Below, one piece after another: positions 17,636 through 39,082 of a stretch of 64,000 nucleotides of DNA. Origin of the DNA: Escherichia coli (GTDB taxonomy: Bacteria; Pseudomonadota; Gammaproteobacteria; Enterobacterales; Enterobacteriaceae); NCBI RefSeq assembly GCF_003991155.1, contig NZ_CP031293.1, one strand, 5' to 3'. The notes under the pieces are model-generated. The model was not told the origin of the DNA and did not search any database. It was given only the letters and a program-made list of their open reading frames with translations. Position numbers and translations under genes: made by a program. How positions within the stretch are numbered: the stretch's first letter is position 1; each line of letters opens with the position of its first letter.

Positions 17636-17685
17636 GTTATTCGGGGCTACGGCCCCGAACTTTGCAAAATAAATAAGGACACAAA

Positions 17686-18003: not shown

Positions 18004-18192
18004 GATAGACGCCCTTACCGTCGATGACTTTAGCAACTGGCTGGATGAAGCCAGCGCCCAAATAAAAATCGAATATGACTCGCAGACCTGATGTCTGCGA
18101 GTTTCCCAAGCCCGTCAGGTTTATTTCTTCCCTGCCCCTTTTTTTAGAAAAATAACCAGCGGGCCATTATCAATATTTAAAGAGAAACAATT

Positions 18193-20568: not shown

Positions 20569-21521
20569 TGTATGCCGTTTTAGGAGAGATTGAATTTAAG
20601 GTTGTCACATTCTGGGACGGCTTTAAAAGCACAATGGGCGTGGATTACGCCACACATGCCCGTATAGAAGGCAAACCCGGCGTGCAGTTTATTGGCGATA
20701 AGCTGGATATGCTGGCGCTGGAATTTTCCCTGCACAGCCAGTTTTGCCAGCCCACAACAGAGCTGAACCGACTGCGTGAAGCCATGCTTGCTCACAAGGC
20801 GATGGCACTGGTATTTGGCAATGGCGATTATCGCGGCTGGTTTGTGATTACGGAGCTAACCGCCACCCACCAGCACACCGATCCCTGGGGCAATGTGATT
20901 GCCCAAAACGGAACGATGTCGCTCCAGGAGTACACCGGCGATCCTAAAAATCCACTTTTACCTCCGGCGATTACCACCCAGGAGCCCAACATCGAGGAAA
21001 AGGCGAGCGATTTTCCCGACAAGGTGGAGTCCTGGTTTGATCAGATATTAAACGCCATTGAAGAAGGTATGCGTAAGGCCAAAGAGATGCTGGATGAACT
21101 GACACAATCCATTGAAGATATTAAAAAAACGGTGGCAAAAGTGAAAGCAATGATTAAAGAGGCCAAAGCGTTAAAAGAAAAGTGTGAAAAGATAATTACG
21201 TCATTGAAAAAGACAATCGACGCCATCGAAACCCTGTTTAAACAGCCAATGGATCTGCAAACGCTGGCAGGCCTACCAAAAGCGTTGTCGGCGCAGATTA
21301 AAGCTTTACTGGGTAACATGCCAGGTATCCGGGACTGCGCCAATGACGCCAGTACGCTGGTTGACCATGCTCAGGCGCTTTTCGACGACATTACCAGCGA
21401 CATCGCCGAAGCGACGTTCGATAAAGCCACGTCGTTGGTTGAGCAGGCACGTACAACGGTACAACAAACCACTCCCGCAGTGAGCCAGCTTGCTGCCGTA
21501 ACCATTACCAGGAGCTGGTAA
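20568..21521 (+). CDS. Tail protein, P2 gpU-like N-terminal domain with coiled-coil C-terminal extension
   Basis: N-terminal region (ARIEGKPGVQFIG...WFVITELTATHQHT) resembles the P2 gpU / Mu N N-terminal family; overlaps TMP stop. Confidence 0.7.
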   Translation: MYAVLGEIEFKVVTFWDGFKSTMGVDYATHARIEGKPGVQFIGDKLDMLALEFSLHSQFCQPTTELNRLREAMLAHKAMALVFGNGDYRGWFVITELTATHQHTDPWGNVIAQNGTMSLQEYTGDPKNPLLPPAITTQEPNIEEKASDFPDKVESWFDQILNAIEEGMRKAKEMLDELTQSIEDIKKTVAKVKAMIKEAKALKEKCEKIITSLKKTIDAIETLFKQPMDLQTLAGLPKALSAQIKALLGNMPGIRDCANDASTLVDHAQALFDDITSDIAEATFDKATSLVEQARTTVQQTTPAVSQLAAVTITRSW

Positions 21522-21730
21522 TGCGATACCTTGAACATATCACCACCGATGGCGAACGCTGGGATAACCTGGCATGGCATTACTACGGTGATGCGCTGGC
21601 TTATGAACGCATAATCGCCGCCAATCCACATGTAGCCATTTACCCGGTACTGCCTTCCGGTATTCAGCTCATTATTCCGGTCATTTCCGTTAATAAAACC
21701 TTATCGGAGATCCCACCATGGCTGAGATGA
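21521..21730 (+). CDS. Tail protein X-like (small LysM-like tail protein)
   Basis: 69-aa ORF with AANP...LP.G pattern as in P2 gpX; located between U-like and D-like genes as in R-type pyocin clusters. Confidence 0.7.
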   Translation: MRYLEHITTDGERWDNLAWHYYGDALAYERIIAANPHVAIYPVLPSGIQLIIPVISVNKTLSEIPPWLR

Positions 21731-22758
21731 GCGTAACTGGTGGCGTCTTTGCCACACTCACGCCCATTTTTACCCTCTGGTATGGGCATAAAGATATCAC
21801 TTATGACATCACACCCTATGTCACCAGCATCAGTTACCACGACAGCATCAAAAACGAGTCGGATACCATCGCAATTACACTGGATGACACAGATGGACGC
21901 TGGATAAAAGAGTGGTATCCCGGCAAAGGCGATACGCTGGCGCTGCATATAGGTTATCAGGGGGAAAAGCTGCTCGATTGTGGCCAGTATATTATTGATA
22001 AAATTGATATTTCAGCGCCACCTTCCACGGTAAATATTGATGGCATCGCCACTTCCGTCAATCAGGCGCTGCGCACCCGTAACAGCCAGGGCTTTGAAGA
22101 AACGACGCTTTCGGCGATCGCCAGCCGTATTGCCCAAACGCACGGTCTGAAACTGGTGGGCAAAATCGAGTCGCTCACCATCGACCGGGTAACGCAGTAT
22201 GGTGAAACCGATGTCGGATTTCTCAAACGTCTGGCCAGTGAATATGGTTATGCCGTAAAAGTGACGACAAAAGAGCTGATTTTTTCACATTTACCCACGC
22301 TGCGCTGCCTGACGCCTGTGAAAAAGATCGATCGCAAAGAGGTTTCTCATTTTACCTTCAAAGACACCATTAACCGGATCTACAAGAACGCCACCGTACA
22401 GCATCAAAATAGTAAGAAAAAAGAACTGGTTATCTACACTCACAACAGCCAGCAAAAACCATCTGTCCGTGGAGTCGGCACTAGTGCCGACACGCTAAAA
22501 CTGAACAGTCGGGCGACGGACGTTGGCGCAGCACAGGCAAAGGCTAACGCTGCACTCGACAGCCACAACGAATATCAGCAAACCGGAACGCTCACAATGA
22601 TGGGCTGCCCGGAACTGACGGCGGGCAATAAAATTGAACTGACCGATTTTGGCGTGATTTCCGGTCAGTGGCTGATTGATAAATCTACTCACAGTTTTGT
22701 GCGCAGCGGCTATACCACTGAAATCGACGTGTCACGCGGGCCAGCGACCAGCCAGTAA
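21718..22758 (+). CDS. Phage late control D-like / Mu gpP-like tail (baseplate hub) protein
   Basis: 346-aa ORF in the conserved U-X-D position. Confidence 0.75.
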   Translation: MAEMSVTGGVFATLTPIFTLWYGHKDITYDITPYVTSISYHDSIKNESDTIAITLDDTDGRWIKEWYPGKGDTLALHIGYQGEKLLDCGQYIIDKIDISAPPSTVNIDGIATSVNQALRTRNSQGFEETTLSAIASRIAQTHGLKLVGKIESLTIDRVTQYGETDVGFLKRLASEYGYAVKVTTKELIFSHLPTLRCLTPVKKIDRKEVSHFTFKDTINRIYKNATVQHQNSKKKELVIYTHNSQQKPSVRGVGTSADTLKLNSRATDVGAAQAKANAALDSHNEYQQTGTLTMMGCPELTAGNKIELTDFGVISGQWLIDKSTHSFVRSGYTTEIDVSRGPATSQ

Positions 22759-22767
22759 GGAGGAAAT

Positions 22768-23469
22768 ATGAAAGGAGTAACCCGTCAAACGGGGATTATC
22801 AGCGATATTGACGAAACCAGTGTTCGGGTACGGGTCACTCTACCAGAGTGTGACAATCTGAAGAGCAACTGGCTTGCGGTACTTCAACGCAATTCCCAGG
22901 ACAATAAAGACTACTGGCTACCGGATATGGGCGAGCAAGTGGAAGTTCTGCTGGACGATAACGGTGAAGATGGCGTGGTGCTGGGTGCCGTTTATTCTAC
23001 GGTTGACACCGCGCCTGTAGCCTCGCGCGACAAACGTTACGTCCAGTTTTCTGATGGCGCAGCGTTTGAATATGACCGCAGCACGCACCAGCTGACGATT
23101 AACGGCGGTATCGAGAAAATCGTGATTGAGGTTATCGACAGCACCCGCCTGACATCGCCCAACGTTGAGATTAAAGCCCAACACGTCACCGTGACTTCCG
23201 ATACCGTCGATGTTAAAGCGACCGATGTCAGCATCGACGCCACTAAGGTCGAGGTTAAAGCAGCAGCAGTGACGGTAGATGCGCCCATGAGCACCTTTAC
23301 TGGCAACGTCACGGTAATGAAAAAACTCACCTGGCTTGGCGGGATGGCAGGAAGTGGAGGCATCGGTAACGCAGCCACGATAACCGGCAATGTCAACGTG
23401 ATCGGCAACGTTCAGGCCAGCGGCGCATTGCAGGACAGCGGTGGCAACTCCAACCACCATTCACACTGA
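22768..23469 (+). CDS. Baseplate assembly protein V-like (central spike)
   Basis: 233-aa ORF; N-terminal OB-fold-like region and C-terminal repetitive beta region (VTVTSDTVDVKATDVSIDATKVEVKAAAVTVDA) typical of gpV spikes. Confidence 0.8.
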   Translation: MKGVTRQTGIISDIDETSVRVRVTLPECDNLKSNWLAVLQRNSQDNKDYWLPDMGEQVEVLLDDNGEDGVVLGAVYSTVDTAPVASRDKRYVQFSDGAAFEYDRSTHQLTINGGIEKIVIEVIDSTRLTSPNVEIKAQHVTVTSDTVDVKATDVSIDATKVEVKAAAVTVDAPMSTFTGNVTVMKKLTWLGGMAGSGGIGNAATITGNVNVIGNVQASGALQDSGGNSNHHSH

Positions 23470-23472
23470 CTT

Positions 23473-23505
23473 TTAACCCGCCTGATGGCGGGTTTTCTCT
23501 TTTTA
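23473..23505 (+). terminator. Hairpin (AACCCGCCtgatGGCGGGTT) plus T-rich tract after the spike gene; possible partial intra-operon terminator
   Basis: Perfect 8-bp stem followed by TTCTCTTTTT. Confidence 0.5.
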
Positions 23506-23567
23506 ATCAATCAGTTTTCTAAATCGCTTTAATATCTCCACAGCCCGTTCAGGGCGAAAATACCCTC

Positions 23568-23927
23568 ATGAACACAAAAACACGCCCCTCAACGCTGCAC
23601 TGGCAACCGGCCTTGCAGCGGCCTGAAGAATACGTCTGCGGGCTGGATGATATTCACCAGGCAATACACATCATTCTGCGTACACCGCGCGGCAGTGATC
23701 CCCACAGACCGCTGTTTGGCAGCAACTTGTGGCACTACATCGATTACCCCATCGAGCGGGCTATCCCGCATGTGGTACGGGAGTCGGTGGAAGCCATCCG
23801 CCAGTGGGAACCGCGCTGTCGGTTGCTGAAGGTGACACCAGTAATCGACGGCGAACATCTGACGTTACGTGTGCAATGGCGCGCCGCTGACGGCGTTATC
23901 AACTCAACGGAGGTGTTATGGCGATAG
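23568..23927 (+). CDS. Baseplate wedge protein gpW / gp25-like
   Basis: 119-aa ORF; PRGSDPHRPLFGSNLWHYIDYP resembles the GPW_gp25 family core. Confidence 0.75.
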   Translation: MNTKTRPSTLHWQPALQRPEEYVCGLDDIHQAIHIILRTPRGSDPHRPLFGSNLWHYIDYPIERAIPHVVRESVEAIRQWEPRCRLLKVTPVIDGEHLTLRVQWRAADGVINSTEVLWR

Positions 23928-25033
23928 CCGAACCCAATTTTATTGACCGCGATCCTGCGCAAATTACCAGTGAGATGATTGCGCAATACGAAGATGCCAG
24001 TGGTAAAAAACTCTATCCGGCACAGGCTGAGCGGTTGCTCATCGACCTGTTTGCCTATCGTGAAAACCTTGTACGCATCGCCATTCAGGAAGCGGCGAAA
24101 CAAAACCTGGTCGCGTATTCCCGCGCGCCAATGCTGGATTATTTAGGGGAGTTGGTGGGAGTTCACCGTTTGCCTGCGCAGCCTGCAAAAACGACGTTGC
24201 AGTTTTCGGTCGTTAGTGCGTATCCCGGCAATATCCTGATTCCCCAGGGGACGCGGGCCAGTGCCTCTGATAGCGTGATGTTCGCCACCGATGAAGATGT
24301 TCTGCTTCCGGCCAGGAGTTTGCATATCGCCGTTCCTGCCACCAGCCTCGCAGCAGGTGAACAGGGTAACGGCTGGCAGCCTGCACAAATTAGCGCACTG
24401 GTCGACAGGATTGGTCATTATGACATCAACGTAACCAACCTGACTGCGTCAACGGGCGGCTGCGGTGAAGAGAGCGATGACGCATTGCGCCAGCGTATCC
24501 AACTGGCACCAGAAAGCTTTAGTAATGCGGGCAGCTATGGTGCCTACCGCTTTCATACGCTTTCTGTTAGCCAGTCGATTATTGACGTTGCAGTACTGGG
24601 GCCGGACGAGGGATTGCCAGAAGGCTGCGTGGAGATCTACCCGCTAACCCTGAATGGTCTACCCGGCACGGAGTTGCTGGCGCAGATTGAACAAGAAGTC
24701 AGCAAGGAGAAAAAACGACCGCTGACCGACAAAGTGAGTGCGAAATGCGCTCTTCGAGTGCCGTATGAGATCCGTGCGCAGCTAATGCTGTTTACCACCG
24801 CCGATCAGGAGACAACGCTGGCTGCGGCGCGTAAAGCGATTAGCCTCTGGACGCAACAGCGGCAGAAACATCTGGGGCAGGACATTGTGCCAAACCAGAT
24901 AATCAAAGTGTTACAGGTCGATGGCGTCTATGACGTTGCGCTGAATATGCCTACAAAACGTATTTTGCAGGCGCATGAATGGGCGGAATGCACTGCAATA
25001 GACGTCACGATTGCCGGAGTCAGCGATGGATAA
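23918..25033 (+). CDS. Baseplate protein J-like
   Basis: 371-aa ORF after gpW with GGAGG RBS; W-J-I order. Confidence 0.8.
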   Translation: MAIAEPNFIDRDPAQITSEMIAQYEDASGKKLYPAQAERLLIDLFAYRENLVRIAIQEAAKQNLVAYSRAPMLDYLGELVGVHRLPAQPAKTTLQFSVVSAYPGNILIPQGTRASASDSVMFATDEDVLLPARSLHIAVPATSLAAGEQGNGWQPAQISALVDRIGHYDINVTNLTASTGGCGEESDDALRQRIQLAPESFSNAGSYGAYRFHTLSVSQSIIDVAVLGPDEGLPEGCVEIYPLTLNGLPGTELLAQIEQEVSKEKKRPLTDKVSAKCALRVPYEIRAQLMLFTTADQETTLAAARKAISLWTQQRQKHLGQDIVPNQIIKVLQVDGVYDVALNMPTKRILQAHEWAECTAIDVTIAGVSDG

Positions 25034-25742
25034 ATTGCTGCCACCGCCGCCGCTTGCCAGCGATGAGCGTTTTTCGATTCTGGCAAACATCGCCGCCGAG
25101 CGTTTTGCCCAACTCGATCTGACGGCGTTGATGGTTTATCTGGTCGACCTGGTTGATGCTTCGGCATTACCAGCCCTTGCAGAACAATTTCACGTTCAGG
25201 GGCTGGAAGGTTGGTTATTTACCACCGATGAGCGGGAGAAACGCGAGTTAATTAAACAAGCCATTGAACTGCATAAATATAAAGGAACAATTTGGGCGGT
25301 ACGGCGAGTGCTGGAAATACTTTCCTTACCCGGAACTATTTCAGAATGGTTTGAATATGGGGGAAGGGCTTATTTTTTTAAGGTAAATATTACACTAGAG
25401 GAAAAAGGATTAAATGAAGATGAATTCAATGCACTTATCACATTAATTCATGAATATAAAAATGTTCGTTCAAAGCTGGAAAGCATTGTTATTTGGCTTA
25501 TTAATCGAAGCCCAATACCAGTTATTGGCAGCGCCATGCAAGGAGGGGAAGTCATTACAGTATTGCCTCCTGTTGCAGAAAGCCTCAGCCAGTCATCAGG
25601 AATATTTTTAGCGACGGGTTATTGTGTGGAGGAATATATCCAACTACTACCTTATCAACCCGATCGCCTTACACAATCCCAACCGATGAAGGTCGGCACA
25701 GGATACTGGAGCACCGAAATTATGTCTGTATATCCGGAGTAA
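25026..25742 (+). CDS. Tail protein I-like (baseplate)
   Basis: About 238-aa ORF from ATG 25026 overlapping J stop; position before tail fiber. Confidence 0.7.
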
Positions 25743-25744
25743 TA

Positions 25745-27325
25745 ATGGCAAGTGAATTTTTTACAATATTAACTGCTGCAGGCAAAGCCAAAATTGCCTC
25801 AGCACTGGCCGAGCAAAAACAGATCCGTCTGCAAACTATGGTAGTTGGCGACGGTAATGGTAAATATATCGAACCGACAGAAAGTCAGACCAAAGTAGTC
25901 CATGAGGTCTGGCGTGGTCAGCTCAATACATTAAAAATTGCGCCAGATAATCCGGCCTGGGTTATCGCAGAAGCGATTATTCCCGAACAAGTCGGAGGCT
26001 GGTATGTACGCGAAGTTGGGTTACTGGATACCGACGGCACGCTGGTCGCTATTGGTAAATTCCCGGAAACCTATAAGCCACGATTACCTGCGGGGGCCAG
26101 TAAGCAAATCGTTATACGCGCGGTCATGGAAGTCACCAATGCAGACGCGGTGACGCTTTTGATCGACCCTTCAGTCGTTGTGGCAACCAGGGAATATGTC
26201 GATGACGCGTTGAAAACACATCAGCAATCACGAAATCATCCTGATGCGACGCTGACACAAAAAGGTTTTACGCAGCTCAGTAATGCAACTAATAGCGATG
26301 ATGAGACTAAAGCAGCCACGCCAAAAGCGGTAAAAACGGCATATGACCTGGCAAATAGCAAAGCCGCAACCAGTCATACTCATGCCTGGAATCAGATTAC
26401 TGGTATCCCTGACGGTACACTGACGCAGAAAGGAGTCGTTAAACTTAACAACACAACAAATAGCACCAGTACAACGGAAGCTGCAACGCCAAGTGCGGTT
26501 AAAGCAGCGATGGACAAGGCTATTGCTGCGGCGCCGTCCAGCCATACCCATGCCTGGGGGCAAATAACAGGTATCCCCGACGGTACGCTGACACAAAAAG
26601 GGGTCGTGAAACTTAATAATGCGACCAACAGCACCAGTACGACGGAAGCTGCGACGCCGAACGCGGTTAAGGCAGCGATGGATAAGGCTATTGCTGCGGA
26701 AAGCTGTCCTGTTGGGATGCCTATTCCCTGGCCATCTGATTCTGTACCTTCAGGCTACGCTCTGATGACAGGTCAGACATTTAATAAAACCTCCTATCCC
26801 AAACTGGCAATTGCATATCCATCTGGTGTTATTCCTGATATGCGCGGATGGATAATTAAAGGAAAACCATCCAGTGGGCGCGCTATATTATCTACTGAAC
26901 TGGATGGAGTTAAATCACATAACCATACGGGCAGTATTTCGAGTACTGATTTAGGGACGAAAACCACACCCCTCACAGACTTGGGGACTAAAACTGCATC
27001 ATCATTTAACCATGGAAATAAAACAACAAGTTCATCTGGCTCAGGCTCGGCAACTGCAACAGTAAGAACAGGGACATCTTCACCAGAGGGCCAAGGCGAC
27101 TGGACATCATATGGCCCTGGTACCGGATCATCTTTGGCAATTAATGTTCCATCACACGTTCATAGTGTTACAATTGGTTCCCATTCGCACACTGTTGCGC
27201 TCGGCACCCATTCGCATTCAATTGCACTTGGTTCCCATAACCACTCCCTAACCATTAATAATACCGGCAGCACCGAAAACACCGTCAAAAATATCGCATT
27301 CAACTATATTGTGAGGCTAGCATGA
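25745..27325 (+). CDS. Tail fiber protein (P2 gpH-like N-terminal anchor, repeat region, His-x-His tip)
   Basis: N-terminus [23 protein letters not shown]...HEVWRGQLN...[12 protein letters not shown] resembles the conserved P2 H N-terminal domain; three tandem ~45-aa repeats; C-terminal [22 protein letters not shown]. Confidence 0.85.
26244..26700 (+). repeat. Intragenic tandem repeats (three ~135-bp units) within the tail fiber gene
   Basis: Repeated [12 protein letters not shown](A/T)[12 protein letters not shown](S/N)[12 protein letters not shown]...HTHAW(N/G)QITGIPDG seen at DNA and protein level. Confidence 0.7.
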
Positions 27326-28029
27326 ATACTTTTACCTTTTCTGATGAAGCTCAAATACTAACTGTATATAATTTTTCACAAGACTCCCAAGAATATATCG
27401 GTGAGTCTGATGCATACATTGCACCTAATACAGGCTTGCCAAATTATTGCACATTAATTTCACCTCCCGAAAAGGCTCCTGGTTTTACTCCAGTGTGGGA
27501 GAATGAAACATGGAGACTTATTGAAGATCATCGAGGCCAAACTGTTTATAACAAAGTTGATGGTAGCCAGCTTATTATTCAAGAATTGGGCCAATTACCT
27601 GAAAATGTAACAGTCATTTCCCCGACAGGTTCTTTTGAACGTTGGGATGGTGAAAAATGGCAACCATCTATAACCGATGCTAAAGAGGCGAAATACTCTG
27701 CAATCAAAAATCAACGCGATGCCATCACAACCGATTACATCATCATCAACAACCATCACTTCCACAGTGATACAAATAGCCGTATCCAACAGCTTTCACT
27801 CACAAAAATGGGAGCGGAGAAAAAAATTCCGCCAGGGTTAATGTGGAAAACTAAAAATAATGGTCTGATTGAGTTAACCAACGAAATCGCTGCCCAGTTT
27901 GAATCGGTCACCATGGATCACGATATGCGCTTGTTCGCAAACGCCCAGCGTCATATCGCGGCGGTGGAAGCACTGGACGATATTCAGGCGGTGCTCGACT
28001 ACGATTATTCAACAGGCTGGCAACCATGA
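27322..28029 (+). CDS. Tail fiber assembly (chaperone) protein
   Basis: 235-aa ORF overlapping the fiber stop (ATGA); lower GC than surrounding genes, typical of host-range modules. Confidence 0.75.
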
Positions 28030-28481
28030 GTAAAACCACTGTCTGGCTCGCTTGTTATAAGGGCCGAACAGAGCACCGTGGTATTGCCCGACTGGCTGAC
28101 TGGCTTACCCGTAAAATCACACGCGGTAGTTATTCCCACTGTGAATTAGCCGTTAAGCATGGTGAAAAGAGATACCTTTGTTACTCCGCATCACTGCGCG
28201 ATCGCGGTGTACGCGGAAAAATAATGCCATTGCCAGCGGATAAGTGGGATATGCTGCCGCTCCAGGCCAGCCTTCAGGATGTGGAAACTTTTTTCCGTAA
28301 ACATGATGGCAAAAAATATGACTGGCGCGGAGCATTAGGAATTATTATCGGTAATAAAGAACAGCGCGATCGCCTGTTTTGCAGTGAATTTTGTGCTGAA
28401 TTTCTGCAACTGAAGGAAAGCTGGCGCTATTCTCCAAACCACTTGTACGCTTTAGTCAGTAGCTGGCAATATCAGCCGTAA
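28026..28481 (+). CDS. Hypothetical protein (151 aa), Cys/His-containing, translationally coupled to tail fiber assembly gene
   Basis: Intact ORF with ATGA overlap to upstream gene; no confident family assignment. Confidence 0.5.
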   Translation: MSKTTVWLACYKGRTEHRGIARLADWLTRKITRGSYSHCELAVKHGEKRYLCYSASLRDRGVRGKIMPLPADKWDMLPLQASLQDVETFFRKHDGKKYDWRGALGIIIGNKEQRDRLFCSEFCAEFLQLKESWRYSPNHLYALVSSWQYQP

Positions 28482-28495
28482 AATAACGCCGGGCA

Positions 28496-29296
28496 TCACG
28501 CCCGGCGCATTACCGTCTGGTACAGTAAACTATCCAGTTCCTTAACGTCCCCTTCTCTGCTATCCGGTAACACTGGTGGAGTTTCCCCGCGCGCCAGCTC
28601 CGCGCGAATAAACGCATGTAACAAAGGACGACGCGGACCATATTCCGCCTCCCCCGCTCGCTGTTTACGCTCCAGCAGTTCGTCTATTTCTACGCGTAAC
28701 GGCGCATCAAGCTCGCTTCCCGCCAGTAACTCGGAAAAGCGCATTGGCGGCACGCCTTTTCCCGCTTCAACCCAGCGTACGGCCAGCAGCGGACGCAGCA
28801 CGTAAAAGTATTTTTTCAGTCGAACTTCATCGCCCTGCAAATAGCCGCGGAAGTTTTTCTGCGCCATCGAATAGTAATGCCAGCGTGCACGCAACGAAGA
28901 AAACCACATTGGGACCATTGCCTTAAGCGCCGTTATCGTTTCTTCATCTTGTTGATAGACCACCGGAGAATCCAGCCATTCTATCAGCGTCGGATTCGCG
29001 CCTTTCAATAATCCCAGCGCCTTACGCCACTCCCAACCGGAAACATCTAATTCGTCGTCGATGGGCAGCTCGATAACATCGCGCGGTGACTCTACACGCA
29101 GATACCATTCCAGCGGATGGACATACAAAAACCGTACATCGTAGTCGCTATCGGGCGAGGCAAATCCCCAGCCGCGGCTGCCTGATTCGCAGGCGTACAG
29201 CACTTTCACGCCATAGAGACGTTCTATTTCTTTTAACTGCTGCGATACCCGTTCGCGCATCGCAGCACTGACTCCATTTAATGGCATGTTACTCAC
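28496..29296 (-). CDS. Pol-beta-superfamily nucleotidyltransferase-domain protein
   Basis: 266-aa ORF with N-terminal motif ESGSRGWGFASPDSDYDVRF (GS-x9-12-D-x-D nucleotidyltransferase signature); C-terminal ~200 aa unassigned. Confidence 0.7.
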   Translation of the reverse strand: MSNMPLNGVSAAMRERVSQQLKEIERLYGVKVLYACESGSRGWGFASPDSDYDVRFLYVHPLEWYLRVESPRDVIELPIDDELDVSGWEWRKALGLLKGANPTLIEWLDSPVVYQQDEETITALKAMVPMWFSSLRARWHYYSMAQKNFRGYLQGDEVRLKKYFYVLRPLLAVRWVEAGKGVPPMRFSELLAGSELDAPLRVEIDELLERKQRAGEAEYGPRRPLLHAFIRAELARGETPPVLPDSREGDVKELDSLLYQTVMRRA

Positions 29297-30420
29297 CCTT
29301 TGATATTAACCAACCCATGCAGAACCTGATCCAGACCGCCAAATACAGAGATGTTATCGATCCGCTCAGCCACTCTCTCCAGCGTTTCCAGTTCTTTTAA
29401 GCGTAACGCCACCGGGTTGTTTTCCATGACTTTAGCGGTATTGAGTAACGAACGTGTCGCTGCCGTTTCTTCACGCCGACGAATCACATTCGCCTGCGCA
29501 GATTTCTCTGCCTCAACCAGCTGCGCGAGGATATTTTTCATATCACCAGGCAGGACGATATCTTTCACCCCTAATGAGGCAATCTCCATACCAAATGGCA
29601 ACATACGCGATTTAACCTGTTCGCTGACAACGTCATCAATGACCTGTTTATCTTCCAGCAACTCATCCAGCGTACGCGTACCTACCGCTTCACGCAGTGC
29701 AAATTGCAATTCCCGATACAAATGATCAATCGGCTTCGTTAACTGACTAAATGCCAATAACACGTCGCTGTAGCGCCAGTTGGCGGCGAGGTTAATCCGC
29801 AGATTGACCTTATCTTTCGTTAAGATTTCTTGCCCGCTGACTTCCAGTACCTGCAAGCGGGTGTCAACCACTTCAGCTTCAACCAGATGGTTAATTTTCC
29901 AGTACGCAGTCAGCCCCGGCGGTAACAGCGCCTGCGTTTCACCATCGATTTTCAGTACACCTACGTGCCAGGCCGGAACCTGCACCGTCAGTATCGCATC
30001 GCGGCCTTTAACTGCCCCTTTGCGCCGTGGCTGCAATACCGCATTCATCACCTCCGTTTGAACCTGGACTTGCTGCGTATTCATCCGCACCAGCGTCAAA
30101 TCATCCTCTACACGCCAGTACAAACGACGCGTTGATGGCGGCAGGATCTCCAGCAAAATACCGTCCATATACAACGCCCCGGCTTCAGTCTCCGACAAGT
30201 CGGCCACCACGCAATATCTTTCCACCCAATCAGGCTGAAAGCGGCGCAAATAATCCGCCAGCACGTCGGGAACTTCGCTGCCATCGAACGTAATCAGCAA
30301 GACTTCTGGCGTATTTAACCAGGGTAAAAGATGCTCGCCTGCATGCAGCACTTTGTAGTAATCGCCATTTCTGGAGAGTAATGCCAGCTGATCTTTTCTT
30401 ACGCTTATTTTCTTAATCAT
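29293..30420 (-). CDS. SPFH (band-7/stomatin-prohibitin-flotillin) domain protein with ~170-aa N-terminal extension
   Basis: 375-aa ORF; C-terminal half shows SPFH-like region followed by coiled coil (EAEKSAQANVIRRREETAATR...); 4-nt overlap with downstream NTase gene; AGGAA RBS. Confidence 0.75.
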   Translation of the reverse strand: MIKKISVRKDQLALLSRNGDYYKVLHAGEHLLPWLNTPEVLLITFDGSEVPDVLADYLRRFQPDWVERYCVVADLSETEAGALYMDGILLEILPPSTRRLYWRVEDDLTLVRMNTQQVQVQTEVMNAVLQPRRKGAVKGRDAILTVQVPAWHVGVLKIDGETQALLPPGLTAYWKINHLVEAEVVDTRLQVLEVSGQEILTKDKVNLRINLAANWRYSDVLLAFSQLTKPIDHLYRELQFALREAVGTRTLDELLEDKQVIDDVVSEQVKSRMLPFGMEIASLGVKDIVLPGDMKNILAQLVEAEKSAQANVIRRREETAATRSLLNTAKVMENNPVALRLKELETLERVAERIDNISVFGGLDQVLHGLVNIKG

Positions 30421-30948
30421 TATCTATTCCTTGCTTAACAGCCGTCGCGGAAGCAGATACGAAGCGACAGGGGAATTCCCTTTTGCCTGTTACCCGGCGT
30501 CTTTATCGGCGACGTTATCGGGGATCGCTGACTGTGCAATCCCTCATTTTTTATTTAATAAGTTACAACCAGTATTCATTTCAGGAATGAATTCGGGAAT
30601 CGAACCCATAATTGGCGTCAAAGGCTGACGGAACACGCCCGGAAAACAGCCTGGCCGTTCCTGGTGTGCCGACGGGGTTTAATCCCCTTTGAAATTCAGT
30701 ATCAACGCAAAAGTGTTATTGCGAGAAGCGTGCCAGAATTGAGAAAAACCATTAACAAAATGAAAAATAAAGAGTTAATAAATTACTGTTGTTTGTAGGG
30801 GGAAAACTTTTTGCTAAATTTTTATCTGTATTTATCGTCAATTATCAAGAAAGATAGATATTTAAGAAGGGAACAAAGGAATATTATCAGTTCTGCTCGC
30901 AAACGAATTCCCGTACACTGAACTCTCTGGCTCACTGAGGGCACCATC

Positions 30949-32094: not shown

Positions 32095-32441
32095 AAATTC
32101 TCCTGTAAAACGCGGAATATACCGTACCTCTTAGCGGGGAAAAACAGGGTTATGCGGCAACGTCGAAATTAAATGTGATCTGCCACGCCTTTTATCACAA
32201 AAGTGTCTCCGGAAGTACGATGCAAATTTGCCTGGCAAAATAAGGATAATCAACATATTACGAATCGCTGCACACCTGTGCTGATGACTACTACGCAGAG
32301 AAACAAATGTGCAAGAGAAAGCGCTATTTCTCCCCATGCAAAGAGTGAAAAATCGCTTTGAAAGGCCATCATGATGGGGTTATATCAGATCAAGCGGTGA
32401 GAAAGCGTATTTGCACAAATGTGCAGAACCAGGAGGCGGCA

Positions 32442-33389
32442 ATGGAAAACAGTGACGATATCCGTTTGATTGTGAAGATTGCCCAACTCTATTACGAACA
32501 GGATATGACGCAGGCGCAAATCGCGTGCGAACTGGGTATTTACCGCACCACCATCAGCCGCTTGCTTAAACGAGGCCGCGATCAGGGAATTGTCACCATC
32601 GCCATCAACTATGACTACAACGAAAATCTCTGGCTGGAGCAGCAACTGAAGCAAAAGTTTGGCCTGAAAGACGTTGTGGTGGTGTCGGGAAATGATGAGG
32701 ATGAAGAGACTCAACTGGCGATGATGGGGTTACACGGCGCGCAACTGCTGGATCGCTTGCTGGAGCCTGGCGATATTGTCGGTTTTTCCTGGGGTCGCGC
32801 GGTGAGCGCACTGGTTGAAAACTTGCCGCAGGCGGGGCAATCGCGGCAGTTAATCTGCATACCAATTATTGGCGGCCCGTCCGGTAAACTCGAAAGCCGC
32901 TATCATGTAAACACATTAACCTACAGCGCGGCAGCGAAGTTGAAAGGGGAATCGCATCTCGCGGATTTTCCGGCTCTACTGGATAACCCCTTAATTCGTA
33001 ATGGGATCATGCAGTCTCAGCACTTTAAAACCATCTCTGCCTACTGGGATAATCTGGATGTCGCCCTGGTGGGAATTGGCTCACCGGCCATTCGCGACGG
33101 CGCTAACTGGCATGCGTTTTATGGTGGTGAAGAGAGTGACGACCTGAATGCCCGCCAGGTTGCTGGCGATATTTGCTCGCGCTTTTTTGATATTCACGGC
33201 GCAATGGTTGAAACGAATATGAGCGAAAAAACACTCTCTATCGAAATGAATAAATTAAAGCAGGCACGATATTCCATTGGCATTGCCATGAGTGAAGAAA
33301 AATACAGCGGAATTGTTGGTGCACTGCGTGGAAAATATATTAATTGTCTGGTAACGAATAGCAGCACAGCTGAACTATTACTGAAATAA
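32442..33389 (+). CDS. sorC: SorC-family transcriptional regulator of the L-sorbose operon
   Basis: Translation from internal start MENSDDIRLIVKIAQLYYEQDMTQAQIACELGIYRTTISRLLKRG (HTH) followed by sugar-binding domain; first gene of sor cluster. Confidence 0.85.
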   Translation: MENSDDIRLIVKIAQLYYEQDMTQAQIACELGIYRTTISRLLKRGRDQGIVTIAINYDYNENLWLEQQLKQKFGLKDVVVVSGNDEDEETQLAMMGLHGAQLLDRLLEPGDIVGFSWGRAVSALVENLPQAGQSRQLICIPIIGGPSGKLESRYHVNTLTYSAAAKLKGESHLADFPALLDNPLIRNGIMQSQHFKTISAYWDNLDVALVGIGSPAIRDGANWHAFYGGEESDDLNARQVAGDICSRFFDIHGAMVETNMSEKTLSIEMNKLKQARYSIGIAMSEEKYSGIVGALRGKYINCLVTNSSTAELLLK

Positions 33390-33458
33390 AAATCTTCCCG
33401 ATGTTTACCGTAATAAAAATTACGGCGGGTCCCTATTATCTAAAATCAGGAGTCTGTT

Positions 33459-34265
33459 ATGCAAACGTGGTTAAATTTGCAGAATAAAATCATTATTGTC
33501 ACCGGTGGCGCATCCGGCATTGGTCTGGCGATTGTGGATGAATTATTAGCACAAGGCGCGAATGTACAGATGGTCGATATTCACGGTGGCGATGGACAAT
33601 ATGAAGGTCATAAAGGCTATCAGTTTTGGCCGACCGATATTTCCAGCGCCAAAGAGGTAAATCATACGGTAGCAGAAATTATCCAGCGTTTTGGTCGCAT
33701 CGACGGTCTGGTCAATAACGCCGGGGTCAATTTTCCGCGTCTGCTGGTCGATGAGAAAGCGCCTGCCGGGCAGTATGAACTCAACGAAGCGGCATTCGAA
33801 AAAATGGTCAATATCAACCAGAAAGGCGTTTTTCTGATGTCGCAGGCGGTGGCGCGACAGATGGTCAAACAACATGATGGCGTGATTGTGAATGTTTCCT
33901 CAGAAAGTGGGCTGGAAGGCTCAGAAGGCCAAAGCTGTTACGCCGCGACCAAAGCCGCGCTCAATAGCTTCACGCGCTCCTGGTCGAAAGAGCTGGGTAA
34001 GCACGGTATCCGTGTGGTCGGTATCGCGCCGGGGATTCTGGAAAAAACAGGACTGCGCACGCCGGAATATGAAGAAGCGCTGGCTTGGACGCGCAATATC
34101 ACCGTCGAGCAGCTGCGTGAAGGCTATACCAAAAACGCCATTCCTATTGGGCGCGCCGGAAGATTAGCAGAAGTGGCTGATTTTGTTTGTTATCTGCTGT
34201 CTGAACGCGCCAGCTATATCACCGGAGTAACCACTAACATTGCGGGCGGCAAAACGCGCGGCTAA
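33459..34265 (+). CDS. sorD: Short-chain dehydrogenase (D-glucitol-6-phosphate dehydrogenase SorD-like)
   Basis: 268-aa SDR with TGGASGIG Rossmann motif; operon position. Confidence 0.8.
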   Translation: MQTWLNLQNKIIIVTGGASGIGLAIVDELLAQGANVQMVDIHGGDGQYEGHKGYQFWPTDISSAKEVNHTVAEIIQRFGRIDGLVNNAGVNFPRLLVDEKAPAGQYELNEAAFEKMVNINQKGVFLMSQAVARQMVKQHDGVIVNVSSESGLEGSEGQSCYAATKAALNSFTRSWSKELGKHGIRVVGIAPGILEKTGLRTPEYEEALAWTRNITVEQLREGYTKNAIPIGRAGRLAEVADFVCYLLSERASYITGVTTNIAGGKTRG

Positions 34266-34274
34266 GGAGGCTTT

Positions 34275-34682
34275 ATGGTCAATGCCATTTTTTGCGCCCA
34301 CGGCAAATTAGCCTGCGCCATGCTGGAATCGGTTCAGATGGTGTACGGCGATGCCAGGGTCGAGGCAGTTGAATTTGTGCCCGGCGAGAACGCCGGAGAC
34401 ATTGTGGCAAAGCTGGAGAAGTTAGTGAGCATTCACAATCATGACGAGTGGCTAATCGCCGTGGATTTACAGTGCGGCAGCCCGTGGAATGCGGCAGCGG
34501 TGCTTGCGATGCGCAATCCTCGTCTGCGGGTAATCAGCGGCCTTTCACTGCCGCTGGCGCTCGAACTGGTTGATAACCAGGACAGCATGAATGTTGATGA
34601 ACTGTGTGAACACCTGACGCAAATCGCAAAGCAATCCTGCGTCGTCTGGAGACAGGTGGCAACGGCAGAGGAGGATTTCTGA
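34275..34682 (+). CDS. sorF: PTS sorbose-family EIIA component
   Basis: 135-aa ORF with mannose-family EIIA N-terminus (AIFCAHGKLA); operon position. Confidence 0.8.
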   Translation: MVNAIFCAHGKLACAMLESVQMVYGDARVEAVEFVPGENAGDIVAKLEKLVSIHNHDEWLIAVDLQCGSPWNAAAVLAMRNPRLRVISGLSLPLALELVDNQDSMNVDELCEHLTQIAKQSCVVWRQVATAEEDF

Positions 34683-35176
34683 TGAACATTACGCTCGCCC
34701 GCATTGATGACCGCCTGATCCACGGTCAGGTCACTACCGTCTGGTCGAAAGTGGCTAACGCCCAGCGCATTATTATCTGCAATGACGAAGTTTATAACGA
34801 TGAAGTTCGCCGGACATTATTGCGTCAGGCTGCGCCACCGGGAATGAAGGTTAACGTGGTCAATATTGAAAAAGCCGTCGCGGTTTATCACAACCCGCAA
34901 TATCAGGACGAAACCGTTTTTTATCTTTTCACTCGCCCACAGGATGCCTTAGCGATGGTTCGCCAGGGGGTAAAAATAGGTACCCTGAATATTGGCGGTA
35001 TGGCCTGGCGTCCTGGTAAAAAACAGTTAACCAAAGCAGTTTCATTAGATGACGATGATATTAACGCATTTCATGAGTTAAATAATCTTGGCGTCATACT
35101 GGATTTACGCGTCGTAGCGTCAGATCCCTCAATCAATATTATCGACAAAATAAACGAACAGTTAATCGCAAATTAA
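34682..35176 (+). CDS. sorB: PTS sorbose-family EIIB component
   Basis: 164-aa ORF MNITLARIDDRLIHGQVTTVWSK (mannose-family EIIB motif). Confidence 0.85.
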   Translation: MNITLARIDDRLIHGQVTTVWSKVANAQRIIICNDEVYNDEVRRTLLRQAAPPGMKVNVVNIEKAVAVYHNPQYQDETVFYLFTRPQDALAMVRQGVKIGTLNIGGMAWRPGKKQLTKAVSLDDDDINAFHELNNLGVILDLRVVASDPSINIIDKINEQLIAN

Positions 35177-35241
35177 ATAATAGCGCCTGTGTACATATGC
35201 TTTAACAGGCAGGGATGACGACACTTAAAAGGTGACAAATC

Positions 35242-36039
35242 ATGGAAATAAGTACCCTACAAATTATTGCTATATTTCTTTTTTCCTGTATTGCCGGAAT
35301 GGGCAGCGTGCTGGATGAATTTCAGACTCATCGTCCGTTAATTGCCTGTACGGTGATTGGTTTAATTCTCGGTGATTTAAAAACCGGAATTATGCTCGGT
35401 GGTACGCTGGAATTGATAGCTCTCGGCTGGATGAACGTCGGCGCGGCGCAATCTCCGGATTCTGCACTCGCCAGCATAATCTCCGCCATTCTGGTTATCG
35501 TTGGTCAGCAAAGCATCGCCACCGGAATCGCCATCGCGTTGCCTGTGGCTGCGGCAGGCCAGGTGCTAACGGTGTTTGCCCGTACCATCACCGTAGTGTT
35601 CCAGCACGCGGCGGATAAAGCAGCGGAAGAAGCACGGTTTCGCACTCTCGATATTCTGCATGTCTCCGCGCTTGGCGTGCAGGCACTGCGCGTTGCTATT
35701 CCGGCACTGATTGTCTCGCTGTTCGTCAGCGCCGATATGGTGAGCAATATGCTGAGCGCCATTCCCGAATTTGTGACCCGTGGACTGCAGATTGCTGGCG
35801 GTTTTATCGTGGTGGTCGGTTACGCCATGGTGCTTCGCATGATGGGCGTGAAATATTTGATGCCTTTCTTTTTCCTCGGTTTCCTCGCAGGTGGCTACCT
35901 CGATCTCAGTCTGCTGGCGTTCGGTGGCGTCGGCGTGATCATGGCCCTGCTCTACATCCAGTTAAATCCACAGTGGCGTAAAGCTGAACCACATCCCCAG
36001 ACCACCACTATCACCGCCCTTGACCAACTTGATGATTAA
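35242..36039 (+). CDS. sorA: PTS sorbose-family EIIC component
   Basis: 265-aa polytopic membrane ORF. Confidence 0.85.
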   Translation: MEISTLQIIAIFLFSCIAGMGSVLDEFQTHRPLIACTVIGLILGDLKTGIMLGGTLELIALGWMNVGAAQSPDSALASIISAILVIVGQQSIATGIAIALPVAAAGQVLTVFARTITVVFQHAADKAAEEARFRTLDILHVSALGVQALRVAIPALIVSLFVSADMVSNMLSAIPEFVTRGLQIAGGFIVVVGYAMVLRMMGVKYLMPFFFLGFLAGGYLDLSLLAFGGVGVIMALLYIQLNPQWRKAEPHPQTTTITALDQLDD

Positions 36040-36049
36040 CGGAGCCATC

Positions 36050-36874
36050 ATGGAACAGAGAAAAATTACACGCAGCGATCTGGTGAGCATGTTTCTGCGC
36101 TCCAACCTGCAACAGGCATCCTTTAACTTTGAACGTATTCACGGGCTGGGTTTTTGCTACGACATGATCCCCGCCATCAAACGACTTTACCCATTAAAAG
36201 AGGATCAGGTTGCGGCGCTCAGGCGACACCTGGTGTTCTTCAATACCACGCCAGCCGTATGTGGCCCGGTCATCGGCGTCACTGCCGCCATGGAAGAGGC
36301 GCGAGCCAACGGCGCGGAAATTGATGACGGTACCATTAACGGCATCAAAGTAGGTCTGATGGGACCATTGGCAGGAGTTGGCGATCCACTGGTCTGGGGA
36401 ACGCTGCGCCCGATTACCGCCGCGCTCGGCGCATCTCTGGCACTTTCGGGCAACATTCTCGGCCCCCTGCTGTTCTTCTTTATTTTCAATGCAGTACGTC
36501 TGGCAATGAAATGGTATGGGCTGCAACTGGGCTTTCGTAAAGGGGTGAATATCGTCAGCGATATGGGCGGTAATTTGCTGCAAAAACTGACCGAAGGCGC
36601 GTCGATTCTCGGGCTGTTTGTAATGGGCGTACTGGTGACCAAATGGACATCGATCAACGTGCCGTTAGTGGTTTCACAAACGCCTGCCGCCGATGGTGCC
36701 ACCGTCACTATGACCGTACAGAACATTCTCGACCAGCTTTGCCCTGGATTGCTGGCGCTCGGTTTGACGCTGCTGATGGTACGTCTGCTCAACAAAAAAA
36801 TTAACCCGGTATGGCTGATTTTCGCCCTGTTTGGTTTAGGGATTATCGGTAATGCGCTGGGCTTCCTGTCCTGA
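36050..36874 (+). CDS. sorM: PTS sorbose-family EIID component
   Basis: Membrane ORF from ATG 36050 (GGAG RBS), 274 aa; typical EIID. Confidence 0.85.
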   Translation: MEQRKITRSDLVSMFLRSNLQQASFNFERIHGLGFCYDMIPAIKRLYPLKEDQVAALRRHLVFFNTTPAVCGPVIGVTAAMEEARANGAEIDDGTINGIKVGLMGPLAGVGDPLVWGTLRPITAALGASLALSGNILGPLLFFFIFNAVRLAMKWYGLQLGFRKGVNIVSDMGGNLLQKLTEGASILGLFVMGVLVTKWTSINVPLVVSQTPAADGATVTMTVQNILDQLCPGLLALGLTLLMVRLLNKKINPVWLIFALFGLGIIGNALGFLS

Positions 36875-36925
36875 TTCTTCGCCCCGGCGCAACCGTCGGG
36901 GCCATCGTTCAACATGAGGTGGTTT

Positions 36926-38155
36926 ATGAAAACAACAGCTCTGCGTCTTTATGGTAAACGTGATTTACGCCTGGAAACCTTTGACCTTCCTGAAATGCAG
37001 GAGGATGAAATCCTCGCAACGGTGGTCACTGACAGCCTGTGCCTCTCTTCCTGGAAAGAGGCCAATCTGGGGGAAAACCATAAAAAAGTACCCGACGATG
37101 TGGCGACCAATCCCATCATCATCGGCCACGAATTTTGCGGCGATATTCTGGCCGTGGGTAAAAAGTGGCAGCACAAATTCCAGCCGGGTCAGCGTTATGT
37201 GATTCAGGCCAACCTGCAACTCCCCGACCGCCCGGACTGCCCCGGCTACTCCTTCCCGTGGGTAGGCGGCGAAGCGACGCATGTGGTTATTCCCAACGAG
37301 GTCATGGAACAAGATTGCCTGCTGGCATACGACGGCGAAACCTATTTTGAAGGCTCGCTGGTTGAACCGCTTTCCTGCGTGATTGGCGCGTTCAACGCCA
37401 ACTATCATCTTCAGGAAGGTAGTTATAACCACACGATGGGGATTCGCCCGCAAGGGCGCACGCTGATCCTCGGCGGCACCGGACCAATGGGACTGTTGGC
37501 GATTGATTATGCGCTACATGGACCCGTTAACCCTTCGCTGCTCGTCATTACCGATACCGACAACGACAAATTGAGTTATGCGCGCAAGCACTATCCATCA
37601 GAACCGCAAACACTGATTCATTATCTCAATGCCACCGATGCAGCATTTGATACGTTAATGGCGCTGAGTGGCGGTCACGGCTTCGATGATATTTTCGTCT
37701 TTGTGCCTAATGAAGGACTGGTGACTCTCGCCTCTTCCTTGCTGGCGACAGATGGTTGCCTGAATTTCTTCGCCGGACCGCAGGATAAGCACTTCAGCGC
37801 GCCAATTAATTTCTACGATGTGCATTATGCATTTACCCACTACGTAGGCACGTCAGGCGGCAATACCGACGACATGCGCGCAGCGGTCAAATTGATTGAA
37901 GAGAAAAAAGTGCAGGCCGCAAAAGTGGTAACACATATTCTTGGGCTGAATGCCGCGGGCGAAACCACGCTTGAATTGCCTGCCGTCGGCGGCGGGAAAA
38001 AACTGGTGTATACCGGGAAATATCTGCCGCTGACATCACTCACGCAGATTCAGGATGAAGAACTGGCGGCGATTCTGGCGCGTCATCAGGGAGTCTGGTC
38101 CGGCGAGGCGGAGCAGTACCTGCTCGCCCATGCAGAGGCGATTTCCCATGATTAA
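36926..38155 (+). CDS. sorE: Zinc-type alcohol dehydrogenase family, L-sorbose-1-phosphate reductase-like
   Basis: 409-aa ORF from MKTTALRLYGKRDLRLETFDLPE...; MDR/ADH family features; operon position. Confidence 0.8.
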   Translation: MKTTALRLYGKRDLRLETFDLPEMQEDEILATVVTDSLCLSSWKEANLGENHKKVPDDVATNPIIIGHEFCGDILAVGKKWQHKFQPGQRYVIQANLQLPDRPDCPGYSFPWVGGEATHVVIPNEVMEQDCLLAYDGETYFEGSLVEPLSCVIGAFNANYHLQEGSYNHTMGIRPQGRTLILGGTGPMGLLAIDYALHGPVNPSLLVITDTDNDKLSYARKHYPSEPQTLIHYLNATDAAFDTLMALSGGHGFDDIFVFVPNEGLVTLASSLLATDGCLNFFAGPQDKHFSAPINFYDVHYAFTHYVGTSGGNTDDMRAAVKLIEEKKVQAAKVVTHILGLNAAGETTLELPAVGGGKKLVYTGKYLPLTSLTQIQDEELAAILARHQGVWSGEAEQYLLAHAEAISHD

Positions 38156-38960: not shown

Positions 38961-39082
38961 GAAACATCAGCGCCTTGTTTGCCACGCCAGAAGCAATGCG
39001 CAACATCGTGAGCCATGTCAGTAAGCGGTTAAAATCACAGTGGTAGCATGGCTCCCGTGATTTCTTACTAACCGGAGAAGTA

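Follow-up and report, generated by a model that had tools for sequence, protein, structure and literature searches.

Operons that combine a Band-7 (SPFH-domain) protein, a tRNA associated with band 7 (termed b7a-tRNA), RtcB and RlaP were predicted by Burroughs and Aravind (NAR 2016), as their work is cited in 10.1101/312249 and PMC12776372, and in the part of 10.1101/312249 that deals with them the Band-7 protein with its RNA beside RtcB is proposed to be a cofactor like Ro60 with Y RNA. That source describes the RNA of these loci by its tRNA-like part alone. RlaP is named for 'RNA ligase-associating Pol-beta'; the Pseudomonas proteins PfRlaP and PaRlaP add one or two nucleoside monophosphates (NMP) to RNA 3′-OH ends in vitro, favour damaged RNAs, and have been suggested to replace nucleotides cut off by 'smart' ribotoxins such as RloC before ligation (PMC12776372). 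In P. aeruginosa PA14 the SPFH protein PaFlo8 is embedded in the rtc locus (PMC13086221), and in Salmonella, where tRNA halves with 2′,3′-cyclic phosphate ends activate RtcR (PMC7790460), the operon rsr–yrlBA–rtcBA joins Ro60, Y RNAs, RtcB and RtcA (PMC7790460, 10.1101/312249). Here we describe a two-gene locus at positions 28477–30860, minus strand, of a 64-kb stretch of Escherichia coli DNA (contig NZ_CP031293.1; hereafter 'the window') that encodes an SPFH protein and an RlaP. The original prediction, made from the sequence of the window, had recognized the pair as no named system. The pair represents, in reduced form, a system that is known from prediction and for the most part uncharacterized, namely the Band-7, b7a-tRNA and RlaP system with RNA ligases, and its leader is absent from Rfam. 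Comparison with relatives indicates that a Band-7/tRNA-like RNA/RtcB/RlaP/RtcA operon has here lost rtcB and rtcR and kept its promoter, leader, SPFH gene and RlaP gene.

The resemblance to the described Band-7/b7a-tRNA operons, such as P. aeruginosa rtcR–PaFlo8–rtcB–rlaP–rtcA, extends to the same orthologous SPFH and RlaP genes with the SPFH gene first, the same sigma-54 promoter, and an RNA with a T-arm between promoter and SPFH gene; PaFlo8 would be the orthologue of the window SPFH protein. Missing from the E. coli operon are RtcB, RtcA and RtcR. Furthermore, the one or two cloverleaf units of the other operons are replaced by a rearranged structure in which the T-arm alone is recognizable, and the 3′ domain of the leader measures about 120 nucleotides (nt) as against 230–300 nt. 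The Salmonella rsr operon is, as is predicted for the E. coli locus, a repair operon under RtcR/sigma-54 control, with a putative scaffold protein and a structured non-coding RNA that carries a tRNA-like module, and a comparable cofactor role has been proposed for both. In E. coli, however, an SPFH protein takes the place of TROVE/Ro60 as putative scaffold, the RNA precedes the first gene instead of lying between genes, and the operon contains RlaP and no ligase.

The SPFH (or 'slipin') gene occupies 29293–30420 on the minus strand, encodes a soluble protein of 375 amino acids (aa) and is preceded by an AAGGAA Shine–Dalgarno sequence at 30427–30432; the gene for the RlaP-family Pol-beta nucleotidyltransferase follows on the same strand at 28496–29287. 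The original prediction had described two minus-strand open reading frames (ORFs) of 375 and 266 aa with a 4-nt overlap. Both are present, at 29293–30420 (375 aa) and 28496–29296 (266 aa from a GTG at 29296), but the overlap is doubtful: the RlaP gene probably starts at the ATG at 29287, giving 263 aa and leaving a 5-nt gap to the SPFH gene, because at the junction (AAAGGGTGAGTAACATG) a Shine–Dalgarno-like AAGGGTGAG lies 5–7 nt before this ATG, PGAP calls the same start, and it aligns with the N terminus of Citrobacter RlaP. The pair is convergent with plus-strand tail genes, as had been seen, and ends in an intrinsic terminator hairpin at 28486–28508 (minus strand; GCGCCGGGC-GUGAU-GCCCGGCGU followed by UAUUUU), between the RlaP stop and the stop of a convergent 151-aa ORF. 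At its other end the module reaches about 400 bp beyond the predicted pair of ORFs, with a promoter and structured leader at 30421–30860.

The nucleotidyltransferase is a full-length member of Pfam RlaP (PF10127, independent E-value 5e-96; aa 13–259, model positions 1–248 of 249) and also matches PHROG 14344 (9e-121). Twelve RlaPs encoded in rtc operons show no variation at G39–S40, D51, D53 and D84, nor at D49 and D73, and the window protein keeps all residues that are invariant among these homologues. The predicted GS...D-x-D motif (G39-S40, D51-x-D53) is real, and the C-terminal half, formerly an unassigned domain, belongs to a defined family because the PF10127 model covers aa 13–259. The Pseudomonas RlaPs fall in the same Pfam family over their full length, are 57–59% identical to the window protein with the GS, DxD and third-aspartate positions invariant, and appear to have the same two-domain layout of a nucleotidyltransferase and a helical domain; E. 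coli RlaP, with its catalytic residues intact, would be expected to share their addition of 1–2 nt to 3′ ends. The gene positions differ, in that E. coli rlaP adjoins the SPFH gene whereas Pseudomonas rlaP lies between rtcB and rtcA. In this strain rtcB is about 840 kb away, and orthologues of RlaP in other genera adjoin rtcB. A sequence search of the PDB with RlaP returned no match.

In the SPFH protein, the Band_7/SPFH domain (Pfam PF01145, 1.2e-23) spans aa 147–318 and follows an N-terminal extension of about 146 aa. There is no hydrophobic or transmembrane segment, the best 19-residue Kyte–Doolittle mean being 1.13, and the predicted picture of a 375-aa SPFH protein with a long N-terminal extension and no transmembrane anchor is thus borne out. 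The predicted model (pLDDT 87.4) consists of three short beta-repeats, the SPFH domain and a long helix, so that the N terminus is modelled as beta-repeats and not as a membrane anchor. Stomatin structures in the PDB match the protein at 1e-18 to 4e-22. Known SPFH proteins assemble into rings or cages; the eukaryotic major vault protein is far larger than the window protein and has nine repeats as against two to three. The protein is longer, at about 510–520 aa, in Providencia DSM 17385, Gilliamella, Snodgrassella and a Thiomargarita metagenome-assembled genome, where the N-terminal beta-repeat region is present once more, as judged from two tblastn segments per locus (our loci L024, L036–L039, L044, L051 and L068) and from representatives of 500–550 aa.

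A homologue search with the SPFH protein was saturated by near-identical E. coli sequences and uninformative, and another approach was used: a search of representative sequences gave 547 families of full-length SPFH relatives, 31 were aligned and 80 loci were fetched from species genomes, and K-12 RtcR, RtcB and RtcA together with the window RlaP were searched by tblastn against 84 slipin loci. The dominant layout is a divergent rtcR on the minus strand, a spacer of 450–700 bp, and SPFH–rtcB–rlaP, often followed by rtcA; it spans Enterobacterales, Pseudomonas, Burkholderiales, Rhodocyclales, Neisseriales, Gilliamella and Snodgrassella. At 60 or more proteobacterial loci (Gamma- and Betaproteobacteria), the SPFH homologue stands in the order rtcR, tRNA-like RNA or RNAs, SPFH–rtcB–rlaP–(rtcA). 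The window SPFH protein is 56–84% identical over its full length to those that open such rtcR-controlled rtcB operons, its own operon having no ligase, and the window RlaP is 55–87% identical to RlaPs of rtcR-linked operons.

Within the enterobacteria, the layout can be followed through successive reductions. SPFH–rtcB–rlaP is found in Phytobacter, Kosakonia, Enterobacter, Siccibacter, Pluralibacter and Providencia, and rtcR with SPFH–rlaP in the absence of rtcB is found in Citrobacter, Superficieibacter, Mangrovibacter, Hafnia and Pseudocitrobacter; judged by gene content, E. coli is a further step, in which rtcR is gone besides rtcB. In C. freundii, rtcR and SPFH–rlaP occupy the site between lysC and yjbD, as the E. 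coli pair does. A 2026 survey of P. aeruginosa SPFH proteins stated that PaFlo8-type proteins are absent from Enterobacterales (PMC13086221). Contrary to that survey, we found full-length relatives in E. coli, Citrobacter, Enterobacter, Kosakonia, Hafnia, Providencia and others, and these enterobacterial proteins are 56–57% identical to those of the P. nitroreducens group.

A candidate sigma-54 (−24/−12) promoter, TGGCAC-N5-TCGCA (TGGCACGCTTCTCGCA), lies at 30720–30735 on the minus strand, upstream of the SPFH gene, and is the single match to TGGCAC-N5-TNGCW in the window. The same motif stands at the equivalent place in about 45 of the 84 slipin loci by the strict pattern and is kept in the alignment of E. 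coli with C. freundii; the corresponding promoter of K-12 rtcBA reads TGGCACGACGGTTGCA. About 85–125 nt further upstream, a GATA-rich block at 30819–30860 (minus strand; TATCTATC-N6-GATAAT-N3-CGATA-N5-AGATAAAAA) is a putative RtcR upstream activating sequence. It aligns with TTATCC-N5-GATAAA-N3-CGATA-N5-AGATAAAA, which 13 enterobacterial loci carry between the rtcR start codon and the sigma-54 promoter, and has a GACGATA core in common with the K-12 rtcBA promoter; RtcR would be the protein that binds it. K-12 RtcR and the SPFH-linked RtcR of Citrobacter are 61% identical, with NDADRLRKYLARFGL identical in the C-terminal DNA-binding (helix-turn-helix) region. The source strain has an intact rtcR–rtcB–rtcA at 4.08 Mb, and the rtc locus was matched in 5424 of 5426 E. 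coli genomes (in 4837 at ≥80% coverage). Since promoter and GATA block are conserved, the RtcR helix-turn-helix segment is identical and rtcR is present in the strain, it is plausible that the chromosomal RtcR controls the orphan operon in trans.

Between the sigma-54 promoter and the SPFH gene lies a leader of about 290 nt, for which an RNAalifold consensus of 12 enterobacterial leaders gives 49 pairs in nine helices. In this consensus 96.2% of cells are paired, compared with 37–47% when partners are slid by 1–3 columns, and 24 pairs are compensatory, compared with 3–7 in the slid controls; none of 500 shuffles reaches any of five measures of leader structure. Covariation is strong, and a structured leader RNA is well supported by the alignment. 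The structure is visible only by comparison, because folding of the single sequence is indistinguishable from shuffles (z = −0.97).

In the leader (all features on the minus strand), the 5′ part is domain A at 30624–30700, a predicted three-way junction comprising P1 (30700–30696 with 30628–30624), the hairpin P2 (30690–30672) and the long hairpin P3/P4 (30671–30629); its helices 1–4 are 96–99% paired, with 10 pairs changed on both sides. A tRNA T-arm, UGGGUUCGAUUCCCG, follows at 30594–30608 as the apparent surviving part of a b7a-tRNA-like element, and its stem (helix 5) covaries. Domain B, at 30443–30514, consists of nested long-range helices P6–P9 around the conserved GCCGAUAAAGACGCCGGG, CAGGCAAAA and UUCCCCUGUCGCUUCG; helices 6–9 are 92–100% paired, with 12 pairs changed on both sides, and enclose the most conserved sequence blocks. 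Two further candidate hairpins lie between T-arm and domain B. One, AUUCAUU-CCUGA-AAUGAAU at 30574–30592, is directly 3′ of the T-arm; by eye, Phytobacter UUCACU/AGUGAA and C. freundii UUUCAU/AUGAAA are compensatory and out of alignment register, and a second clade of enterobacteria instead has this 3′ strand paired to one that lies upstream (GCGAA...UUCGC), which yields an acceptor–T minihelix. The other, GGGAUUGC-ACAGUCA-GCGAUCCC at 30521–30543, was also seen by eye and lies outside the counted structure, the MAFFT alignment not being in register; Enterobacter has GGUCAUCG...CGAUGACC in its place, a full replacement that retains pairing. A full acceptor stem for the T-arm, UGAAUU (30698–30693) with AAUUCA, fits E. 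coli and C. freundii and not Kosakonia or Enterobacter, competes with P1 and with the hairpin after the T-arm, and was rejected as a family feature.

With few exceptions, the proteobacterial loci have one or two T-arm motifs (GGTTCGAnTCC) upstream of slipin. With its threshold relaxed, ARAGORN detects tRNA-like units before the SPFH gene of non-enteric loci, either a single one or two that abut directly. They combine canonical D- and T-arms with an acceptor stem of 6 bp and with anticodon loops that are arbitrary or malformed, and CCA is mostly missing. We used 36 canonical tRNA-like units from other loci to build a covariance model, R1, which scores 31–77 bits in further non-enteric loci. In the window R1 matches only a 13-nt T-arm (model positions 51–63, 12.5 bits, E = 0.003), and the E. 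coli RNA is therefore not a strict b7a-tRNA. Rfam (E ≤ 10) has no family for the leader; matches to Hrs12 and SorX are to the terminator hairpin only.

Non-enteric loci (for example L005 5740–6000 and L016 5710–6000) also have a GC-rich stretch of 230–360 nt between the tRNA-like units and the SPFH start, in which the motif CAGUACCCGCCGG is conserved and distant strands form a helix (for example, CCGCCGG...CCGGCGG in Burkholderia and GCCGGUG...CACCGGC in Pseudomonas). The alignment of these 230–300-nt leaders was too poor for a common structure; the sole long-range helix, with 20 pairs, 88% paired and 14 compensatory by our own count, is a hint only, and the stretch may be a larger version of the enterobacterial domain B. 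In cyanobacteria (Nostoc, Calothrix, Acaryochloris and relatives; L082–L087, L076 and L079), SPFH homologues at 44% identity stand in a setting free of rtc genes, with no rtcR, rtcB, rtcA or rlaP within 6 kb, and tandem tRNA-like units that score 66–77 bits with R1 lie 1–1.4 kb upstream on the same strand; these could be genuine tRNA genes. At one Nostoc locus the SPFH neighbours are a Dam methylase and PPK2; a 247-aa neighbour was considered and rejected as an RlaP. As far as such comparisons go, the RNA and the SPFH protein may be an ancient core to which repair enzymes are variable partners.

Across 5426 complete E. coli genomes the pair is found in 1631 (30%), chromosomal in every case, and the carriers include O26, O111 and O104:H4 lineages; 1623 of them match at least 80% of the query region, and at least one strain has a truncated copy (37% coverage). 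The original prediction was right that the pair is accessory and absent from K-12, where lysC and yjbD are 252 bp apart. The place that it gave the pair, at the right, or cargo, end of a phage-derived tail island, is no property of the pair itself. The tail-island junction occurs in only 195 of 1630 pair-bearing genomes (12%), and in strain ECC-1470 the shared unit lies between a zeta-toxin gene and yjbD without tail genes. The tail element therefore does not carry the pair as its cargo; each of the two occupies a variable site independently of the other. By comparison with K-12 and ECC-1470, the unit common to strains is 28477–30818, which comprises both genes and about 400 bp upstream.

The 252-bp K-12 spacer (L003 3633–3884) retains a diverged copy of the GATA block (the counterpart of window 30819–30860) and, at 91% identity, 23 nt that correspond to part of leader domain B (window 30487–30509), which together look like the deletion scar of the module. 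The SPFH gene is also present in E. fergusonii and Shigella, and Citrobacter has a fuller module at the same site, so the module looks as if it were ancestral at the lysC–yjbD position and had been lost several times, and not like a recent import. Purifying selection acts on both genes: the ratio of non-synonymous to synonymous substitution rates (dN/dS) relative to ECC-1470 is 0.060 for RlaP and 0.047 for SPFH, at dS 0.15–0.28, and relative to Citrobacter it is 0.04–0.06 for both.

We favour, with a probability of about 0.65, the reading that the locus is an RtcR/sigma-54-inducible accessory RNA end-healing module, the reduced descendant of an RNA-repair operon, that works with the chromosomal RtcB. 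Beneath it stand the results described above on the families of the two proteins, the descent of the operon, the conservation of promoter and RNA, selection, and independence from the tail island; how the operon would be regulated in trans, how it would cooperate with RtcB and what the SPFH protein and RNA might do is proposed as follows. Ribotoxins or stress would produce tRNA halves with 2′,3′-cyclic phosphate and these would activate the chromosomal RtcR, as in Salmonella (PMC7790460). RtcR and sigma-54 would then turn on the orphan operon along with rtcBA, as the promoter, upstream block and identical RtcR helix-turn-helix segment suggest. RlaP would add 1–2 nt to the 3′-OH of broken RNAs, restoring residues trimmed by 'smart' anticodon nucleases, and the SPFH protein, as a soluble ring or cage with the T-arm leader RNA, may assist the repair enzymes as scaffold or cofactor, in analogy with Ro60 and Y RNA in rsr–yrlBA–rtcBA and along the lines proposed by Burroughs and Aravind. 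Ligation would follow in trans, by RtcB of the rtcBA locus. The pair belongs to the world of biological conflict, and its expected role is probably the repair of toxin-damaged RNA, not abortive infection.

A soluble SPFH protein beside a structured RNA also invites an analogy with vaults and Ro particles. It is possible, although we would not count on it, that the SPFH protein forms a closed, vault-like cage that binds the leader of about 290 nt, creating a ribonucleoprotein compartment in which broken tRNAs are presented to RlaP and RtcB. If so, the leader would count as a processed non-coding RNA of a new class and not as a 5′ untranslated region, and the orphan operon of E. coli would be a minimal, tractable vault- or Ro-like RNA quality-control particle.

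Several observations weigh against an RtcR-inducible module that cooperates with RtcB. No RtcB or other ligase gene lies within window 26–33 kb, and with neither ligase nor regulator in cis, both RtcR control and cooperation with rtcBA are assumptions. The lone sigma-54 match is not significant in itself, as 33 of 100 shuffles give at least one. The tRNA-like element, the presumed partner of the SPFH protein, is degenerate: ARAGORN (default and relaxed thresholds) and the Rfam tRNA model (E ≤ 10) find no tRNA in the window leader, and the full cloverleaf model does not fit it. As of 2018, b7a-tRNA had not been validated as existing (10.1101/312249), deletion of PaFlo8, the SPFH gene of the P. 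aeruginosa rtc locus, gave no phenotype in standard assays (PMC13086221), and RlaP products end in a 3′-OH that RtcB cannot directly join, as the authors of PMC12776372 flagged.

This last point, together with the retention of slipin–rlaP under purifying selection in five enterobacterial genera and E. coli after loss of the operon rtcB, favours a function that is independent of ligation, in which RlaP, the SPFH protein and the leader tag or repair RNA 3′ ends (for example, tRNA CCA) or sequester damaged RNA; it would explain why the pair is kept, and the cyanobacteria, which retain tRNA-like RNAs with slipin and no rtc genes nearby, fit it as well. The dominant proteobacterial layout nevertheless ties the pair to RtcB, E. 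coli has rtcBA elsewhere, so that loss in cis need not mean independence, and we know of no RlaP activity beyond short 3′ extension; we therefore regard such a function as unlikely. Loss of rtcR and rtcB might instead have left genes that are unexpressed or useless and heading for deletion as in K-12, a view to which the 70% of E. coli genomes that lack the pair, the K-12 scar, the degenerate tRNA-like RNA and the truncated copy all lend some colour. Decay of this kind is quite improbable given dN/dS of 0.05–0.06 within E. coli, intact catalytic residues, near-complete copies in almost all carriers, and a promoter, upstream block and leader structure that are conserved with compensatory changes.

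The original prediction had raised an anti-phage or abortive-infection module at the cargo end of the phage-derived element. In such a module, carried as cargo of the tail element, the nucleotidyltransferase would make a signal or modify a target and the SPFH protein would be effector or sensor. The accessory distribution would suit this, as would a variable hotspot in which the neighbour changes with the strain (tail island, zeta toxin or RelE/XRE pair), the RlaP relatives in phages (PHROG 14344; T4 NrdC.11 according to PMC12776372), and the part that tRNA cleavage and repair play in phage–host conflict. However, PADLOC-DB v2 has no family at E ≤ 0.01 for either protein or for two neighbouring ORFs, the SPFH protein has no match in 50,697 phage records, and RlaP adds 1–2 NMP to RNA 3′ ends and makes no cyclic nucleotides (PMC12776372). 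The pair is independent of the tail island and apparently ancestral at its site in enterobacteria, with a deletion scar in K-12, and its homologues, expected in shuffled defence islands, are seen instead at a fixed position in RtcR-controlled RtcB/RtcA repair operons. A defence role is thus unsupported and, in our judgement, improbable. Least credible of all is a membrane-microdomain or protease-regulating scaffold like HflK/C or QmcA–YbbJ with an unrelated nucleotidyltransferase as neighbour. The SPFH domain and long C-terminal helix do resemble stomatin, HflK and QmcA, and PGAP names a 'slipin family protein', but the protein differs from the stomatin, HflK and QmcA cages in having no membrane anchor or hydrophobic hairpin and no NfeD partner (no NfeD-like gene was found beside it among the window ORFs and annotation), its NCBIfam HflK/HflC scores are 19–30 bits against cut-offs of 134–660, and the gene order with RlaP and RtcB is conserved across phyla. 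As the protein has no membrane anchor, the 'membrane-organising scaffold' of the original prediction is doubtful.

The window is identical in sequence to E. coli strain 2016C-3878, and its gene order is pgi, lysC, a Mor/holin/contractile-tail cluster, the 151-aa ORF, the RlaP and SPFH genes on the minus strand, yjbD, rluF and a sor operon. The island after lysC (12743–28481) encodes a Mor-family activator, holin, lytic transglycosylase, contractile sheath, tube, baseplate, a tape measure (a pseudogene by annotation, having an internal stop), a tail fibre and fibre-assembly proteins, without head or replication genes, and represents a tailocin-like cluster or else the remnant of a defective prophage. 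Its true cargo-end gene is the 151-aa ORF at 28026–28481 (plus strand), a hypothetical protein in PGAP that matches PHROG 1128 (8e-59; 'moron/auxiliary', enoyl-CoA hydratase-like). The lysC–yjbD site is an accessory-gene hotspot, with the zeta-toxin gene in ECC-1470 (L002 7058–7984) and a RelE/XRE toxin–antitoxin pair in C. freundii (L004 3254–3945). Further on, between rluF and pepE, a sorbose operon (window ~32358–39000; L001 24043–30561) contains a sorC-like regulator, a short-chain dehydrogenase/reductase, phosphotransferase system components IIA–IID, sorE and a shikimate dehydrogenase-like gene; it is missing at this place in K-12 and ECC-1470.

Our results correct the default annotations, 'slipin family protein' for one gene and 'nucleotidyltransferase domain-containing protein' for the other, from which no connection with RNA repair can be seen, and the locus is a caution that an accessory pair beside a prophage remnant need not be phage defence. 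The Band-7/tRNA-like-RNA branch of repair was predicted ten years ago, and the biochemistry of RlaP comes only from a preprint of December 2025. About 30% of E. coli strains now offer a natural genetic system, a minimal two-gene version with its own promoter and leader and a separate rtcR–rtcBA, in which the role of the SPFH protein and RNA, the RtcR regulon beyond rtcBA, and the action of RlaP against nucleotide-trimming anticodon nucleases become approachable.

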